A stretch of 64,000 bases of DNA. It comes from Clostridia bacterium (lineage in GTDB: Bacteria; Bacillota; Clostridia; Oscillospirales; CAG-272). The notes under the pieces are model-generated. The model searched no databases. It was not told the origin of the DNA and saw nothing but the letters and a program-made list of their open reading frames with translations. The DNA lies in assembly GCA_017441005.1 (NCBI GenBank), contig JAFSAM010000077.1:6443-70442 (forward strand). The letters are read 5' to 3'. Shown one piece after another: positions 49,928 through 58,462 of this stretch (positions within the stretch are counted from its first letter, which is position 1; every line of letters starts with the position of its first letter). The translations under genes and the position numbers were made by a program.

Positions 49928-50176
49928 TCAATCTCCAAATTCAGCTTTTATCTGTTCATTGATAATGGCGTGCATTACGGGAATAAGTTTTAGGTCCTCT
50001 TCTTTGATTGGGATCTCAGCGATATCTTCTTTCTCACCACATTGAGGGAAACATACGTCCCACTCTCCGTCTATGCATTCTTCCAACCAAATAACGCCTT
50101 GCATACCTTTATGCACGCCGTATTTGGCATACTTTTCTTTTTCAACTATTATTTCTACACAATCTAAATATTTCAT
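49928..50176 (-). CDS. DUF4926-like small protein (candidate antitoxin/immunity partner)
   Basis: 82 aa. The pattern 'D.VEIIV...YAKYGVHKGMQGVIW...GEWDVCF...EDIAEIPIKEEDL' matches my recollection of DUF4926. It starts 1 nt after the upstream gene's stop. Confidence 0.55.
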   Translation of the reverse strand: MKYLDCVEIIVEKEKYAKYGVHKGMQGVIWLEECIDGEWDVCFPQCGEKEDIAEIPIKEEDLKLIPVMHAIINEQIKAEFGD

Positions 50177-50177
50177 A

Positions 50178-50519
50178 TTATTTACCCCCGTATGGTGTAT
50201 TTAAAGATATGTGCCCATTAGGATATACCGTCCATCCTGTAATAAAAGATACAAATTCTCCTTTTGTTTTATTTGGAATCTCTACCCTTATACTGATTCT
50301 TTGGCCATACTTATTCAATAGACCTAATTGGTACTCTCCGTTAATATATTTTTCTAATGCTTGTTTCTTTACCTCGTTTTGTAACCATTTTGCATCTGCT
50401 ACAGTATAGCCCCAAGAATTGAACATTTTCTCCTTTGTATGACTGTATTGTTTTTCTGTGTTAAACAGGTATGGATCAAATTTTGAGTATGGGCAGTTAG
50501 CAGTGCCATTGAACATCAC
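50178..50519 (-). CDS. DUF6883-like domain protein, part of a longer disrupted gene
   Basis: 'KFDPYLFN...SHTKEKMFNSWGYT...YGQRISIRVEI...FITGWTV...ISLNTPYG' fits the DUF6883 pattern as I recall it. The frame is open upstream to 50708 and encodes a Cys/His zinc-ribbon-like segment, with no start codon in that stretch. Confidence 0.55.
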   Translation of the reverse strand: MMFNGTANCPYSKFDPYLFNTEKQYSHTKEKMFNSWGYTVADAKWLQNEVKKQALEKYINGEYQLGLLNKYGQRISIRVEIPNKTKGEFVSFITGWTVYPNGHISLNTPYGGK

Positions 50520-53367: not shown

Positions 53368-53676
53368 TACTCCTTAATTTTTATTGTATTTTTACTGTGA
53401 GAGCTCTATACTAAATGCGAAAACTCTGCATAAAGCTATAAGTCAGCCTGTTTGTTCGTATGTAATCGTCGTTGAGGAAGTTTTTACTTCCGCCGAAAGA
53501 CGTACATCATACCAATATCATAAATATTTCCATCAAAAATATGTCAAGGAATCTTTCCGGAATGTTATCACGAACGTGTTTCGATTATAACATTTATCTT
53601 TTTATTTGTCAAATATCCAACACTTCTTTTGGTCAACGTATTCACTTTTACATTATATTACTCCCCCCAAAAAATA

Positions 53677-53725
53677 TAGACACATCATGAGGATAAACTC
53701 CAAAATGATGTGTCTATATTTTTTT
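53677..53725 (+). terminator. H-family conserved hairpin, copy H6
   Basis: TAGACACATCAT (53677-88), loop 'gaggataaactccaaa', ATGATGTGTCTA (53705-16), then T-rich sequence. Confidence 0.85.
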
Positions 53726-53790: not shown

Positions 53791-54876
53791 TTAAATGTCT
53801 TTCGACTGACCTTGATCTATCCAGATTCCGGTGCCGTCGGACATAATTGCGAATTGATAGGCTTCTACAAGGCTTTGAATAGTGCGGCTTAAAGCTTTTC
53901 GTTCTATAAAAAGCTCGTAGGGAGGATTCTTGAGTTCCTCCAAAATATCTTTTTGTCTCAGGTGGTGTTTGCTGTCGGATTTCGTTTTTAAAATTGAATA
54001 TACAAAGAGTGGCAAAAGACTTTTTTGTGAATTGCCTTTTTTGGGACGGTAGAGCTCGTCGAGCTCTTCTTCAGTCATCTGTTCTTCTCGTTCAATTTGA
54101 AGGCGTCTGGTGTTGCTGACAGTTTCTCGTGATATTCCATAACGGTTTAAGAGCATTGCGGCGACAAGCTGTTTTGCCTCTGTGAAAACTACTGCATACG
54201 GGGCATTTAGGAGCATCAAGCGATATAGCCTTCTGGAACGAATGATCACATCGTATGCGCAAATTTTTCCGCCGATACGAGCTTGTGCCTGTGAATAGAG
54301 GTCAGAGACGGATTTGTGATAGTATTCTTTTTCATCGTCGGATACTGAAACATTTAGGTAGTCTGACAAAAAAGAACGTTCAAAATCATCGAGAGGTGCT
54401 CCTTTCGAGAGGTTTCCGGCAATTACCTTGACGTATTCGGATACGTCCATTCTGTCTTCTATATCTTGAAGCCTTTCTATGTCAAATTTATCATACGAAA
54501 AAGGTCGAAGATAATCGTTCCAAAACTTAAAAAACGTATCGTCATTAACTTGTTTTTTGAAATCTTCAGTTGATTGAATATCGAGCAGATCCCCAAGCTT
54601 TTCCGCAAAAAAACGAATAATTGCAACATGAGCCTGCGCTTCGTCTATGAAGTATTCATAGTCTGCAAGATTCCAATTTACCAAGCAACGGTAGCTGTCA
54701 TTTTCGTCTGTATGCAGGTCTTCGCTGAAGCCTTGTCCCGGGGCGTCATAGTGCCAACCGGGAATATATAAAACTCCGTCTTCGTCGGTACGCTCAAACA
54801 TTAGAGTAATGAAATCTTTAAGCTCTAATTCGGGATCATCAAAGGAATAAAATGTTTTGTTTGCTATGTTTGACAT
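53791..54876 (-). CDS. retron-associated protein of unknown function (candidate effector), acidic N-terminal ~280 aa + C-terminal wHTH-like region
   Basis: MSNIANKTFYSFDDPELELKDF... AAAGGAGA RBS 6 nt before the ATG at 54876. C-terminal 'LRQKDILEELKNPPYELFIERKALSRTIQSLVEAYQFAIMSDGTGIWI' resembles an HTH_11-type winged helix. No nuclease, ATPase, TIR or TM motif was recognised. Confidence 0.7.
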   Translation of the reverse strand: MSNIANKTFYSFDDPELELKDFITLMFERTDEDGVLYIPGWHYDAPGQGFSEDLHTDENDSYRCLVNWNLADYEYFIDEAQAHVAIIRFFAEKLGDLLDIQSTEDFKKQVNDDTFFKFWNDYLRPFSYDKFDIERLQDIEDRMDVSEYVKVIAGNLSKGAPLDDFERSFLSDYLNVSVSDDEKEYYHKSVSDLYSQAQARIGGKICAYDVIIRSRRLYRLMLLNAPYAVVFTEAKQLVAAMLLNRYGISRETVSNTRRLQIEREEQMTEEELDELYRPKKGNSQKSLLPLFVYSILKTKSDSKHHLRQKDILEELKNPPYELFIERKALSRTIQSLVEAYQFAIMSDGTGIWIDQGQSKDI

Positions 54877-54951
54877 ATTGTTTCTCCTTTTCATATATTA
54901 CAAAAAGAGTATATCAACTTAGTTGCACCATATTAGGTACAACCACTTTTT

Positions 54952-54981
54952 ATTATATAGGATTCGATAATAAAAAGTCAA
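54952..54981 (-). promoter_or_regulatory. candidate sigma-A promoter for the retron-associated gene
   Basis: On the minus strand: TTGACT (54981-54976, overlapping the RT stop codon), 18 nt, TATAAT (54957-54952). An imperfect palindrome GTTGCACC-ATATTA-GGTACAAC at 54922-54943 follows it. Confidence 0.5.
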
Positions 54982-56030
54982 CTATTACAATGGGTATCAA
55001 AAGATTTAGACAAATTTTCTTTAGCTGCTTGAAACCATTTATTTTCAGGTTCAATTTGTAAAATGTAGTTAACTTTTCCGATAAGGTGACATTTATATCG
55101 AGCGGTATCCCATTTTCCATTTTCGAAAAAGTCATTCTTTTTTCCGTATTTCATACTGTCTTCAAGACCGAATTTTAATGCGTAATAAACATCTTGGCGA
55201 AGTGTTTTTTTATAGTCTGACGGAATAGACACTTTTTTGTTAACGCATAATCCTGTTACTGTTTGGCGCGATGAAAAGAATATGTATTTTGTTTTTTTCT
55301 TATTTACCTGAAATCCCCATCGGTTGAGCATATCTTCAATTTTGTAAGAAAGAACAACAAGAGGATAGTCGGCGGAAAAGGTTAAATCATCACAGTACCG
55401 TGTGTAGACTATGCCGCGTTCGTTACACCAAAATCCTATGTGCTCGTCAAAAGATTTCATCACAAGATTGGATAATGCGGGAGATGTAGGAGCGCCTTGT
55501 GGCAATACACCGTCTTTTGTGCAAAGGGAAGTAAGAATAACCCCGCATTGAGTTGGGAAAAGAGTGGAGGGGAAAGCTGAAGATAGAACTTGATGAAAGG
55601 TAATAGAACTAAAAAAGTCGGAAATATCCATTTTTAATAAATAAAGATGATTGATATGAGGAGCAGCATTATCTTTAAGGTTTTTTCCTTTTTTATATGC
55701 CATAGCATAAGGCGATGTTTCTGCTTTTGATATGATGTTTTGAAGTATTTTCTTTTGGACTTTTTTTAGTTTTCCGTTGGGGGAATGAATGATCCTGAAG
55801 CCGTTGCTTCTTTTGGGGATTCGTATTTCTTTATAACAAGAGTCTGCTTTCTTTGATAAAGCAAAGAGTTCTCCTGTTGTTGTGCCGAGAGTGTCGGCAA
55901 GAGATTGCAGTTCTTTTGATATGCCTTTATTGCTTTTTTGTTTTTTTGAAGAATGTGAATTGGCAAATATTCCAATGAGTTTTTTTACAAAGACTTGAAT
56001 GTTTCTGATAATGTTTGATGCTTTTTTCAT
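54978..56030 (-). CDS. retron-type reverse transcriptase
   Basis: 'IRIPKRSNGFRIIHSP', 'NAAPH' (retron NAxxH), 'LPQGAPTSPALSN', 'RYCDDLTFS' (YxDD) and 'RQTVTGLCVN' (retron VTG motif). A GGAGGA RBS precedes the ATG at 56030. Confidence 0.9.
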   Translation of the reverse strand: MKKASNIIRNIQVFVKKLIGIFANSHSSKKQKSNKGISKELQSLADTLGTTTGELFALSKKADSCYKEIRIPKRSNGFRIIHSPNGKLKKVQKKILQNIISKAETSPYAMAYKKGKNLKDNAAPHINHLYLLKMDISDFFSSITFHQVLSSAFPSTLFPTQCGVILTSLCTKDGVLPQGAPTSPALSNLVMKSFDEHIGFWCNERGIVYTRYCDDLTFSADYPLVVLSYKIEDMLNRWGFQVNKKKTKYIFFSSRQTVTGLCVNKKVSIPSDYKKTLRQDVYYALKFGLEDSMKYGKKNDFFENGKWDTARYKCHLIGKVNYILQIEPENKWFQAAKENLSKSFDTHCNS

Positions 56031-56059
56031 TGGTTTTCCTCCATTTTGGTAACAAAAAC

Positions 56060-56243
56060 CCCTTTGCAGTACAAAATGACTTGGGAAAAATCGACGAGAG
56101 TCTGAGTTACCGGAGGTAACTCAGCGGCTCGATGGAGATTTTTTTCAAGCACGCGGCTATGCCGCACACGAGGGAATAAACACCGATCAACGACTCGCTG
56201 ACCGTCTTGAAACTTTAATCAAGATGTACTCTACTGCAAAGGG
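56060..56243 (-). ncRNA. retron msr-msd non-coding RNA template
   Basis: 12-bp inverted repeats CCCTTTGCAGTA (minus strand; plus 56232-56243) and TACTGCAAAGGG (minus strand; plus 56060-56071) lie 160 nt apart. A G directly follows a1 (plus coordinate 56231), as in the Ec86 'TTA-G' context. Three short msr-like hairpins are followed by a long msd-like stem CTGAGTTAC/GTAACTCAG (56102-56124). The region ends 29 nt upstream of the RT ATG. Confidence 0.8.
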
Positions 56244-56329
56244 ATTCTTATAATGTTGTTTGTATTTTAACAAAATCAATGTACCGAATTCGGTTCATTG
56301 ATTGTTAGAAGTAAAAAAAACAAAAAATA

Positions 56330-56379
56330 TTGGACACATCATAAGGATAAACTCCAAAATGATGTGTCCAACTTTTTTG
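56330..56379 (+). terminator. H-family conserved hairpin, copy H7
   Basis: TTGGACACATCAT (56330-42), loop 'aaggataaactccaaa', ATGATGTGTCCAA (56359-71), then T6. Confidence 0.85.
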
Positions 56380-56383
56380 TTAT

Positions 56384-58237
56384 TTAATTAGTTGCAAGTT
56401 TTCTTTGCTTACTTTCTTTCCTTAAAAAAAGTAGGTTTCCTATTGAGCATTTTGCGTTGCCGTAAAGGTGGGGGAGCGAGTCTGCGCCTACTGTGGAGAG
56501 AACGTCAAATCTAACATATCTTGCTTGTGTGTTTTCAAATGTAACGACGGTTTCACCGCCAAAAGTGCGAAAAATACCGTCTGCTTTTTTTTCGTACTTT
56601 GTTCCGTCAATGCTCGTATATATGGCAAAGGCGGTTGGGAGAGTTGCTGTGTAATCATCTTCACGCCATTTTGTGCGAAGTTCGGGTTGGGTTTTCGGAG
56701 GCTTTTCAACCGGTCTTGGATAGTACCCAATTGCACTGACCGTATGCAATTGTTGCATATCGATTACAATTGATGCTTTGGTGTTCTTTCCTTCCCATAC
56801 GTTGTATACGTCTCCTTCAATGGCGGCAGAGGCATCTTCGCCTGTGAGTATATCAACTGCTGTTGCGTTGCTTAGGTCTATGGCGGATAGTTTTGATTCG
56901 GTATATTTGTCAAATTTACGTCCCGTCCATACGGGCATCGACCAAGTTCTTTTGCCCTCACCGTCTACAAAACGCAGATAGAAATACCGTGCGGTATCTG
57001 ACTGTATTTCAAAATCAAAACTTGAAGAAATATTTGTTGTTTTCAGCAAAGTCTTTCCACCGTCGGATATAACGGCACATTCAACGGGAACTGTCATTTC
57101 ATCTTTTGTAAAATATGAAAGTTCAACGTGGAATCGGTAGGTGTTTGCATAATCAAGGTCGGCGGGAGCGGCTTTTCCATTTACGGTATATCGAAGTTTT
57201 ACGTTTCCGCTTTCGGTTGCATAAAACCTATTATTGCGGAGAGCATCGATAAATGCTTCTCGACTCTTTTCTCGAGCGAGTAAAACCGTTTTCGCTCTCA
57301 TAAAACCGTATCCTCTTTCAGGGCCGTGGGAGTCTGTCGATGCGACTGAACTTACACGAAAGCCGCTATCCAGTGCAAGTGAATAGTTAAATTCATGCAT
57401 AAGATTTTCCCCGATAGCTCTGCCGTTAATCGTTTCGATTCCTCGGACAGCATGTATCATTTCGGGAGTATTGTTTTTATGAAAACAGAAATTCCAGATT
57501 CCCTTATGTCCGATTCCCACTGTACAAGGATGGGCAAAAATTGCGATGGGGGCGGGAGAAGTGCTTATACATTCAAAGAACGGTTTCCAAGAATCTGCAG
57601 AAATATATCCATCTGTGTTGAAAGTAACGATTTCTCCGGAATTTTTGTGAAGAACACCAAAACGGTCGTTTTCCAAAACCGTTACCTCCGATTCTGCTCC
57701 CGGAAGCATAATCACAACGTTCGGCTCTGCTTTTTCGATTTCTACAAAATTGCGGAAGAACTCTGTATCGTTGAGTACGATTGCATGGTCGGACATAACG
57801 CAGAAATCAAGAAGACCTTCGTTTTTGATTTGTTTGATAAAATCACGCTGGAACTCTGACGTGCGGTTGATAAATTCTTCGTGATTATGAATTTTGGTAG
57901 TGTGATTATGAAGGTCGCCTATATAGTAGTTTAATTTATCGTCAGAACTTGCTTTTTTGTTCTCGGTTACCGTTACGAAGCAGGTGTATTGAACACCGCC
58001 CATCGTTGCACTTACGGTTGCATTTCCAACCTTTTTCAATATAAGCAGAACACCGTTGTTGAAGCACATCGGTTCATTACCAGAGAAGGAGTGAAGTGAG
58101 ACTGCATCTGAATCGGATTCCCATTTTATATCTGCTTTGGCCAACTCATTATGTTTTTCGCTGTCAAAACCTATGTGGAGCGGTAACACATCTCCTACAA
58201 ACGATGTTATGTGATTTTGGGATAATGAAACAGTCAT
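56384..58237 (-). CDS. PHP/CehA-like metallo-hydrolase with N-terminal Ig-like region and C-terminal discoidin (F5/8 type C)-like domain
   Basis: MTVSLSQNHITSF... after a TAGGAGGA RBS at the ATG 58237. Motifs 'GDLHNHT' and 'ASTDSHG'. The C-terminal ~150 aa are discoidin-like. The last 12 codons (RKESKQRKLATN) are encoded by a dispersed repeat module. Confidence 0.7.
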   Translation of the reverse strand: MTVSLSQNHITSFVGDVLPLHIGFDSEKHNELAKADIKWESDSDAVSLHSFSGNEPMCFNNGVLLILKKVGNATVSATMGGVQYTCFVTVTENKKASSDDKLNYYIGDLHNHTTKIHNHEEFINRTSEFQRDFIKQIKNEGLLDFCVMSDHAIVLNDTEFFRNFVEIEKAEPNVVIMLPGAESEVTVLENDRFGVLHKNSGEIVTFNTDGYISADSWKPFFECISTSPAPIAIFAHPCTVGIGHKGIWNFCFHKNNTPEMIHAVRGIETINGRAIGENLMHEFNYSLALDSGFRVSSVASTDSHGPERGYGFMRAKTVLLAREKSREAFIDALRNNRFYATESGNVKLRYTVNGKAAPADLDYANTYRFHVELSYFTKDEMTVPVECAVISDGGKTLLKTTNISSSFDFEIQSDTARYFYLRFVDGEGKRTWSMPVWTGRKFDKYTESKLSAIDLSNATAVDILTGEDASAAIEGDVYNVWEGKNTKASIVIDMQQLHTVSAIGYYPRPVEKPPKTQPELRTKWREDDYTATLPTAFAIYTSIDGTKYEKKADGIFRTFGGETVVTFENTQARYVRFDVLSTVGADSLPHLYGNAKCSIGNLLFLRKESKQRKLATN

Positions 58238-58354
58238 AAAAATCCTCCTATGCAAATCTGTCTGTATTTTATCACAATGTATGGTTTTTGTAAAGGGAAA
58301 AAGATAGGGCAAGCACGCTGTTGTCGAGTATGTAATAACACTTTGCAAGATAAC

Positions 58355-58462
58355 ATTTTTGCGTTGTTTTCCTTTTAAACCGAGGCTTTTCATCAACTTT
58401 TGAACTGTCTTGTGGTTAAGAACATAGCCTTTGTATGATATCAATCGTATAAACGTATACAA
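58355..58462 (-). pseudogene. IS3-family transposase (OrfB) remnant
   Basis: 'SYKGYVLNHKTVQKLMKSLGLKGKQRK' matches the conserved 'G..VNHKRV.RLM.ELGL..R.R' segment of IS3-family OrfB. Only about 36 codons remain, and they are read in frame into the long track ORF 56384-58462. Confidence 0.5.

Follow-up and report, generated by a model that had tools for sequence, protein, structure and literature searches.

What does a retron reverse transcriptase (RT) work with when the gene that follows it changes from one genome to the next? This question is raised by a locus on the minus strand of a 64-kb stretch of Clostridia bacterium DNA (contig JAFSAM010000077.1, positions 6,443 to 70,442; hereafter the window), in which a non-coding RNA (ncRNA) of the msr-msd type, a 350-aa RT, and a 361-aa gene of an uncharacterised family, here called c0, lie one after the other. 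A preliminary description, made from the letters of the window, took the three for a complete retron with its partner gene. The retron core, consisting of the RT and the ncRNA, holds up under the comparisons presented here; the partnership is not established, as c0 usually occurs without an adjacent RT, has a promoter of its own, and stands in a place after the RT that other genes fill at other loci. Judged by its RT and its RNA, the locus is a genuine retron of a lineage already known as common in gut Clostridia, while c0, a neighbour with its own promoter that stems from a reshuffled gene island, is unproven as a retron partner.

In 2020, Mestre et al. placed Ec107 in retron clade 2, where it is linked to no specific protein cluster and is sister to type III-A1, which is linked to a phosphoribosyltransferase (PRTase) (PMC7736814). 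More recently, a 2026 survey of SPIRE ranked clade2_Ec107like second in abundance among the retron groups; 93% of it is Bacillota and 91% host-associated, and no accessory module recurs with it (10.64898/2026.05.14.725207).

A retron RT of the Ec107 branch and its covarying RNA

The RT gene (54978-56030, minus strand) is a 350-aa open reading frame (ORF) carrying the motifs on which the preliminary description had relied, NAAPH, LPQGAPTSP, YCDD, and RQTVTGLCVN, the last including VTG; across 32 aligned homologues, none of the retron-specific residues varies. Its proposed membership of a retron clade was borne out by profile searches: the best PADLOC model is RT_Ec107-like (2.9e-113, 376 bits), with the RT_III-A models reaching at most 306 bits, and the NCBIfam model retron_St85_RT scores 238 bits against a cut-off of 235; Pfam returned RVT_1 only. 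By these PADLOC model scores, the RT groups with the Ec107 branch and not with type III-A1. The relatives retrieved come from metagenome-assembled genomes (MAGs) of gut Clostridia, including Acutalibacteraceae and Oscillospiraceae.

Just upstream of the RT gene, and also on the minus strand, lies the ncRNA, which spans 200 nt (56052-56251). Its closing stem is built from two arms, a1 (56232-56250) and a2 (56053-56071), located by fold, repeat finder, and covariation, which contain the perfect 12-bp inverted repeats that had been noticed at the outset: CCCTTTGCAGTA (56243-56232) and, 160 nt away, its complement TACTGCAAAGGG (56071-56060), both read on the minus strand. The arms extend to 18 nt at 89% by the repeat finder and to 19 pairs, including G-U, in the RNA fold, and by our estimate chance alone would yield about 0.006 perfect 12-bp inverted repeats in the 450-nt search window. 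The base directly after a1 is G 56231, in agreement with the preliminary description; set in an invariant GTA|G context, it is the predicted branching guanosine, a priming role assigned from known retrons.

With -83.4 kcal/mol, the fold of the 201-nt stretch is more stable than the average of its shuffles (-46.3; z = -9.0), and none of 200 shuffles equals it. The predicted structure comprises the closing stem, hairpins at 56224-56205, 56204-56184, and 56165-56153, and a long interrupted stem-loop at 56152-56076, thereby recovering the short msr hairpins and single long msd stem-loop of the earlier proposal. The first two hairpins represent the msr, their helices (2 and 3) covary, and the second holds a conserved CAGCGAGTCGCTG. 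The long, three-tier stem-loop (56076-56152), supported by the fold of the window RNA and those of its homologues, is the predicted template of the multicopy single-stranded DNA (msDNA).

Comparison between loci, designated here by L numbers, points to the same structure. At RT-homologue loci, the best inverted repeat 5' of the RT stands at an equal position and ends in ...GTA|G, and changes in a1 and a2 are matched on both arms, as in CCCTTACAGTA or GCCTTTTGTGGTA; the bases G18 T19 A20 G21 (GTA|G) are invariant across the ncRNA alignment (A3). An alignment of nine ncRNA sequences yielded a consensus structure in which 17 of 35 pairs are compensated, and the covariance model R1, which we built from these nine sequences, gives 179 bits for the window RNA. 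R1 also matches directly 5' of the RT, on the RT strand, in loci outside its training set (L214, L061, L054-58, L067, L049, L063, L090, L092, L094, and L101). In an alignment of 20 sequences, 98.0% of cells are paired, compared with 76% in shuffles and 37-49% with slid partners; as this alignment was fitted to R1, the pairing is somewhat inflated, although the slid controls and the count of pair types are still unambiguous. Compensatory change on both sides is seen in 28 of the 35 pairs and in 14 of the 16 of the a1/a2 stem, so that the repeats, whose lack of conservation in homologous loci had been named as grounds for refutation, are both conserved and covarying in 20 loci. The msd region is a long interrupted hairpin in 18 of the 20 homologues, with a lineage-specific sequence; the exceptions are L063, with three short hairpins, and L092, with several. 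An Rfam scan of 53-57 kb, with E up to 10, left the ncRNA unmatched, found no intron RNA, and returned only spurious miRNA-type hits on flanking hairpins.

In one RT sub-clade (L059-L066), at 48-49% identity, the RTs measure 413-414 aa with an N-terminal extension, a WYL-domain gene lies two to three genes upstream, and the a1/a2 stems run to 20-21 perfect pairs.

The locus thus resembles Retron-Eco5 (Ec107) in its best RT model, in the position of its ncRNA directly 5' of the RT, and in its a1/a2 closing stem, and differs from it in host, E. coli in that case and Clostridia here, and in ncRNA sequence.

The gene after the RT varies between loci

On the same strand as the RT gene, and 101 nt beyond it, lies c0 (53791-54876, minus strand). 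Its ORF measures 367 aa from the first ATG; we set the start at M7 (54876), giving the 361 aa originally described, because the close homologues are all 361 aa long and the geometry of promoter and ribosome-binding site is conserved. There are 118 such close homologues, all unnamed and without Pfam domains, and a full profile search gathered 1,140 clusters at 50% identity.

In 45 species-representative c0 loci, tblastn found no RT within 6 kb of c0 and R1 found nothing real over the same distance, and in 80 metagenome and 80 viral RT loci no c0 lay within 5 kb of the RT. Direct RT-c0 adjacency occurs only in the window (and in L052, which has the same sequence) and in L047, which shares with the window an 84%-identical block running from 56365, inside a hairpin upstream of the retron, to the c0 stop codon. 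Other genes intervene in L049, in the order RT, 213-aa gene, c0, and in L051, in the order RT, AAA+ gene, four small genes, c0; on JAZPDG010000006.1, RT and c0 are 12.5 kb apart in one island. In L046 (7027-10311), a 60%-identical relative, the RT is followed directly by a 730-aa SNF2/DEAD-box helicase, and c0 is found on the opposite strand, about 1.3 kb past the helicase and about 3.6 kb from the RT gene, in convergent orientation. The gene after the RT therefore varies by locus, being a WYL regulator, c0, a helicase, an AAA+ gene, or others, and c0 is missing from RT relatives at 34-51% identity.

Three unbiased look-ups of RT homologues at 56-57% identity placed the ncRNA and RT at the left edge of a large island, with a WYL-domain protein next in all three. 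Past this protein come AAA+, SUFU, SNF2 helicase, MoxR, VWA/DUF2201, and NAD-dependent ligase genes, the ligase having been seen in L213; in L050, where the contig continues, c0 comes after the ligase and two small genes. A WYL protein also stands near the RT in seven further RT loci.

A same-strand block recurs in Clostridia MAGs (L213, L214, L215, L049, and L050), with the retron and WYL regulator at its left edge, followed by an SNF2 helicase (WH_1/DUF8437), MoxR AAA, VWA/DUF2201, NAD-dependent DNA ligase, two small genes, and c0, after which leucine-rich repeat (LRR) proteins and a short PolIII-alpha/PHP protein often follow. This recurrent island could be a defence, repair, or mobile element.

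The variable neighbours agree with the description of clade 2 Ec107-like retrons as a lineage without a recurrent accessory gene. One difference is that the retron here belongs to, or stems from, an island whose cassettes share a palindromic promoter, of which we found no account in the literature. Type III-A, the sister RT clade, gave the second-best PADLOC hits, and its layout, a PRTase-like gene and a small winged-helix gene upstream, accompanies only RTs at 34-40% identity. A winged-helix module adjoins the RT here too; unlike in type III-A, the cassette has no PRTase, PADLOC matches c0 to none of the type III accessory proteins, and the core that c0 joins to its winged helix is a different, uncharacterised one.

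Palindromic promoters and terminator-like hairpins

At the retron promoter, a palindromic operator (56274-56303, minus strand), with the core ACCGAATTCGGT at 56294-56283 within a 30-bp extended palindrome, is followed after 13 nt by a predicted -10 element, TAAAAT with TG before it (56264-56269, minus strand), the spacing being the same in all loci; transcription would start near 56257. Across seven loci, the 12-bp palindrome ACCnAAyTyGGT stands about 35-45 nt upstream of a1, with the -10, usually TGnTATAAT, exactly 13 nt on. In 1.13 Mb of fetched loci, 55 copies of the composite of palindrome, 13 nt, and -10 were counted on the gene strand and 3 on the other, against 3-7 in shuffles. It heads many unrelated island cassettes (LRR, Sel1, SNF2, WYL, c0, and retron), in loci that include L213, L214, L215, L050, L051, L005, and L006, and typically lies 50-52 nt from the start codon of island genes. 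This arrangement is like that of PafBC-type promoters (PMC8635444), with a palindrome at about -37 to -26, an extended -10 downstream, and no -35 hexamer. An operator sequence inside the msd loop was also considered and rejected by eye, as a loose ACC...GGT likeness is present only in the window and L047, with different spacing.

c0 has its own copy of this promoter (54908-54938, minus strand), made up of a degenerate palindrome, ACCTAATATGGT, at 54938-54927, 13 nt, and the -10 TATACT at 54913-54908, as aligned with L047, L046, L050, L005, L043, L044, and L049. The ATG of c0 comes 51 nt after the palindrome, exactly as in the c0 genes of L005, L043, L044, and L050. A candidate from a generic promoter scan, TTGACT-18-TATAAT (54981-54952), was set aside in favour of this comparatively conserved palindrome and -10. 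Since c0 has an island-type promoter of its own, the retron and c0 are best read, on these predicted elements, as separate, co-regulated transcription units.

The two units are bracketed by a 56-nt direct repeat, whose copies are 86% identical (0 expected by chance) and form terminator-like hairpins on the minus strand: copy 1 (56323-56378) follows the stop of the upstream 692-aa gene, and copy 2 (53669-53724) lies 67 nt after the c0 stop. We considered these hairpins as the ends of a mobile cassette and rejected this, since the block shared with L047 begins inside the upstream hairpin and ends at the c0 stop; in L047 itself a hairpin copy was detected at another place but not after c0. The hairpins have the look of a terminator that recurs in the island, and not of defined element ends. 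Besides, the hairpin has a conserved 16-nt loop, with other intergenic copies in the related genome (L047 1515-1580 and ~2519-2575).

The c0 protein

Searches of Pfam, NCBIfam, PHROGs, and PADLOC assigned c0 to no family, the only match being a faint one to the SspB C-terminus (E = 0.0016), and Pfam comparisons of longer or fused relatives gave nothing informative on function. An AlphaFold model (pLDDT 85) has no global match in the PDB or BFVD, where it returned only local winged-helix hits and beta' hits of low probability. No toxin or enzyme fold was detected in Pfam, PDB, and viral fold searches, no PRTase match in Pfam or PADLOC, and no WYL or WCX domain in Pfam.

Two segments of c0 resemble known domains. 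The first is a C-terminal winged helix (residues ~285-355), homologous to the N-terminal winged helix-turn-helix (wHTH) of the WYL proteins encoded after the RT in L213-215, at 30-40% identity and E values from 1e-4 to 1e-10; WYL and c0 genes also occur as neighbour pairs in six c0 loci. In the window, c0 fills the slot held by a WYL regulator in sister loci, with the same kind of DNA-binding domain. It shares this module with the wHTH-WYL-WCX proteins (BrxR and CapW, regulators of defence islands, and the activators PafBC and DriD) and departs from them in lacking WYL and WCX and in carrying its winged helix at the C-terminus instead of the N-terminus.

The second segment resembles the clamp helices of the RNA polymerase beta' chain, which dock sigma region 2 and NusG. 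With the c0 family profile, the top 60 hits in the PDB were all beta' chains (best E = 0.0012), and the alignment pairs profile positions 203-234 with beta' 270-301, where the clamp helices have their tip. Aligned with E. coli RpoC 1-450, hhalign gave 76-77% probability, E = 2e-5, and 42-44% identity over 32-33 residues, figures that come from a single pairwise comparison (77%, E = 2e-5), the sole database-corrected value being the PDB E of 0.0012. BLASTP added a weaker collinear match over about 90 residues (c0 202-288 to RpoC 257-343), and Foldseek gave beta' hits of low probability only. The residues best conserved in c0 gather in this 33-residue helix-turn-helix hairpin, which matches E. 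coli beta' 271-303 (RLxRLxxLxAPxIIxxNE...) at 42-44% identity: the near-invariant R216, A225, and E233 fall within it, as does P226, which is invariant in a 31-sequence alignment (A1). Family members of about 247 aa that lack the winged helix retain this hairpin (c0 residues ~200-246). The match is short, and outside it c0 bears no relation to beta'; the hairpin is a probable, as yet unproven, imitation of the sigma/NusG docking site or a piece captured from it.

Genomic surroundings

The neighbours of the locus in the window are carbohydrate, PHP, pilus, and AraC genes, and those directly flanking the retron and c0 encode PHP/F5_F8 and TIM-barrel/MBL proteins. None of the other island genes (SNF2, MoxR, VWA, LigA, PolIII-alpha, WYL, and AAA+) was found elsewhere in the 64 kb, and an exact look-up of the flanking 545-aa protein, made in search of an empty site, gave no record.

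The upstream 692-aa ORF of PHP/F5_F8-type-C type (56384-58462) has an N-terminus (58358-58432) that matches HTH_21 of IS3-family transposases; this fragment, which lies about 2 kb from the retron, was probably left behind by an IS and precedes the true start. At 49928-50519, on the minus strand, a 113-aa DUF6883 protein is immediately followed by an 82-aa protein without a family, an arrangement resembling a toxin/immunity-type pair.

Discussion

We consider it probable that the locus consists of two adjacent, separately promoted cassettes of a modular Clostridia island, a retron and a c0 regulator, and that c0 is not a conserved effector. The two cassettes would have landed on their own between carbohydrate-metabolism genes. 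In the first, an extended -10 promoter, overlapped by the 12-bp palindromic operator, would drive the ~200-nt msr-msd RNA and the RT, and the RT, as in studied retrons, would use the 2'-OH of G 56231 as its primer and reverse-transcribe the long msd hairpin to give msDNA. In the second, c0 would be a DNA-binding protein transcribed from its own copy of the operator-bearing promoter; judging by its context, it may bind the palindrome and act on transcription. Most likely, c0 is a co-regulated regulator, or an RNA-polymerase- or sigma-directed factor, of the island. The present retron may serve against phages, to judge by the analogy of other retrons, and its effector, as in the rest of the clade, is not identifiable from sequence.

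Several observations weigh against two independent cassettes and favour a tripartite retron, in which c0 would be a dedicated effector held inactive by the RT-msDNA complex, binding the msDNA through its winged helix until infection frees it. RT and c0 are adjacent on the same strand, and because no terminator was found in the 101-nt gap between them, read-through co-transcription from RT into c0 is possible. A second genome, L047, keeps the ncRNA-RT-c0 trio in a block 84% identical to that of the window, and in the window the trio is isolated from all other island genes, as expected of a functional unit. Wherever the flank of an RT homologue of at least 52% identity is long enough, c0 is present on the same contig or MAG (L046, L047, L049, L051, L213/L050, and L214/L004), four of these having been found through c0, which makes the sample biased. 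In addition, the identities of RT and c0 to the window copies fall in parallel (100/100, 83/87, 60/63, and 53/51), and known accessory proteins of type II and of the sister type III retrons also have C-terminal winged helices (PMC7736814). A protein of the transcription machinery is suggested as target by the beta'-like hairpin; once freed, c0 might stop growth, for instance through titration of sigma factor or NusG. We nevertheless regard the tripartite arrangement, including this mode of arrest, as unlikely: c0 stands without an RT in all 45 representative loci, more distant RT relatives lack it, and unrelated genes hold the position after the RT elsewhere. Furthermore, c0 is under its own island-type promoter, shows no detectable toxin or enzyme fold, and belongs to a family whose 1,140 clusters make it far broader than this RT sub-clade.

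Less likely still, a doubtful reading that we keep in view, is that the retron acts as a signalling module, its msDNA serving as the single-stranded DNA (ssDNA) ligand of island wHTH regulators that bind the shared palindrome and switch a regulon. WYL regulators are known to sense ssDNA (PMC11804915, PMC11662680, PMC10853764), a WYL protein comes immediately after the RT in each of the three unbiased look-ups and near it in the seven further loci, one palindrome heads the retron and many other island cassettes, and c0 shares the DNA-binding domain of the WYL proteins. These are points of context; against them, c0 lacks a WYL domain, many island loci with palindrome promoters have no retron within 6 kb, and WYL regulators are common beside defence genes simply as repressors (PMC9122601). 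Pursued further, and with similarly long odds, the effector-less Ec107-like retrons might be the input module of an island-wide regulon instead of a toxin-antitoxin defence, with msDNA read by wHTH regulators at ACCnAAyTyGGT (mostly WYL proteins, c0 here) and c0 acting as a "pseudo-beta'" transcription factor whose mimic of the clamp helices docks sigma region 2 or NusG.

That the RT belongs to a group II intron, a diversity-generating retroelement, or an Abi or defence-associated RT (DRT) system is very improbable, since its weak matches to models of group II maturase, Drt2, and Drt3a reach 49-57 bits against cut-offs of 200-390 while retron models give 200-376 bits, the Rfam scan showed no intron RNA, a repeat search found no template/variable repeat pair, and a covarying retron-type ncRNA is present.

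The locus holds a new retron of a known, abundant, accessory-less clade. Clade 2 retrons are abundant, yet we found no functional study of them in the literature searched. The window offers a convenient test construct in this regard, as operator, ncRNA, RT, c0, and terminator form a compact 2.7-kb unit apart from the rest of the island, suited to asking whether msDNA is made, what phenotype the retron has with and without c0, and whether the palindrome ties the retron to the island regulon. For the study of transcription and defence islands, the locus also brings to light a family of more than 1,100 clusters with a hairpin like the beta' clamp helices, and a signature promoter carried by dozens of cassettes.

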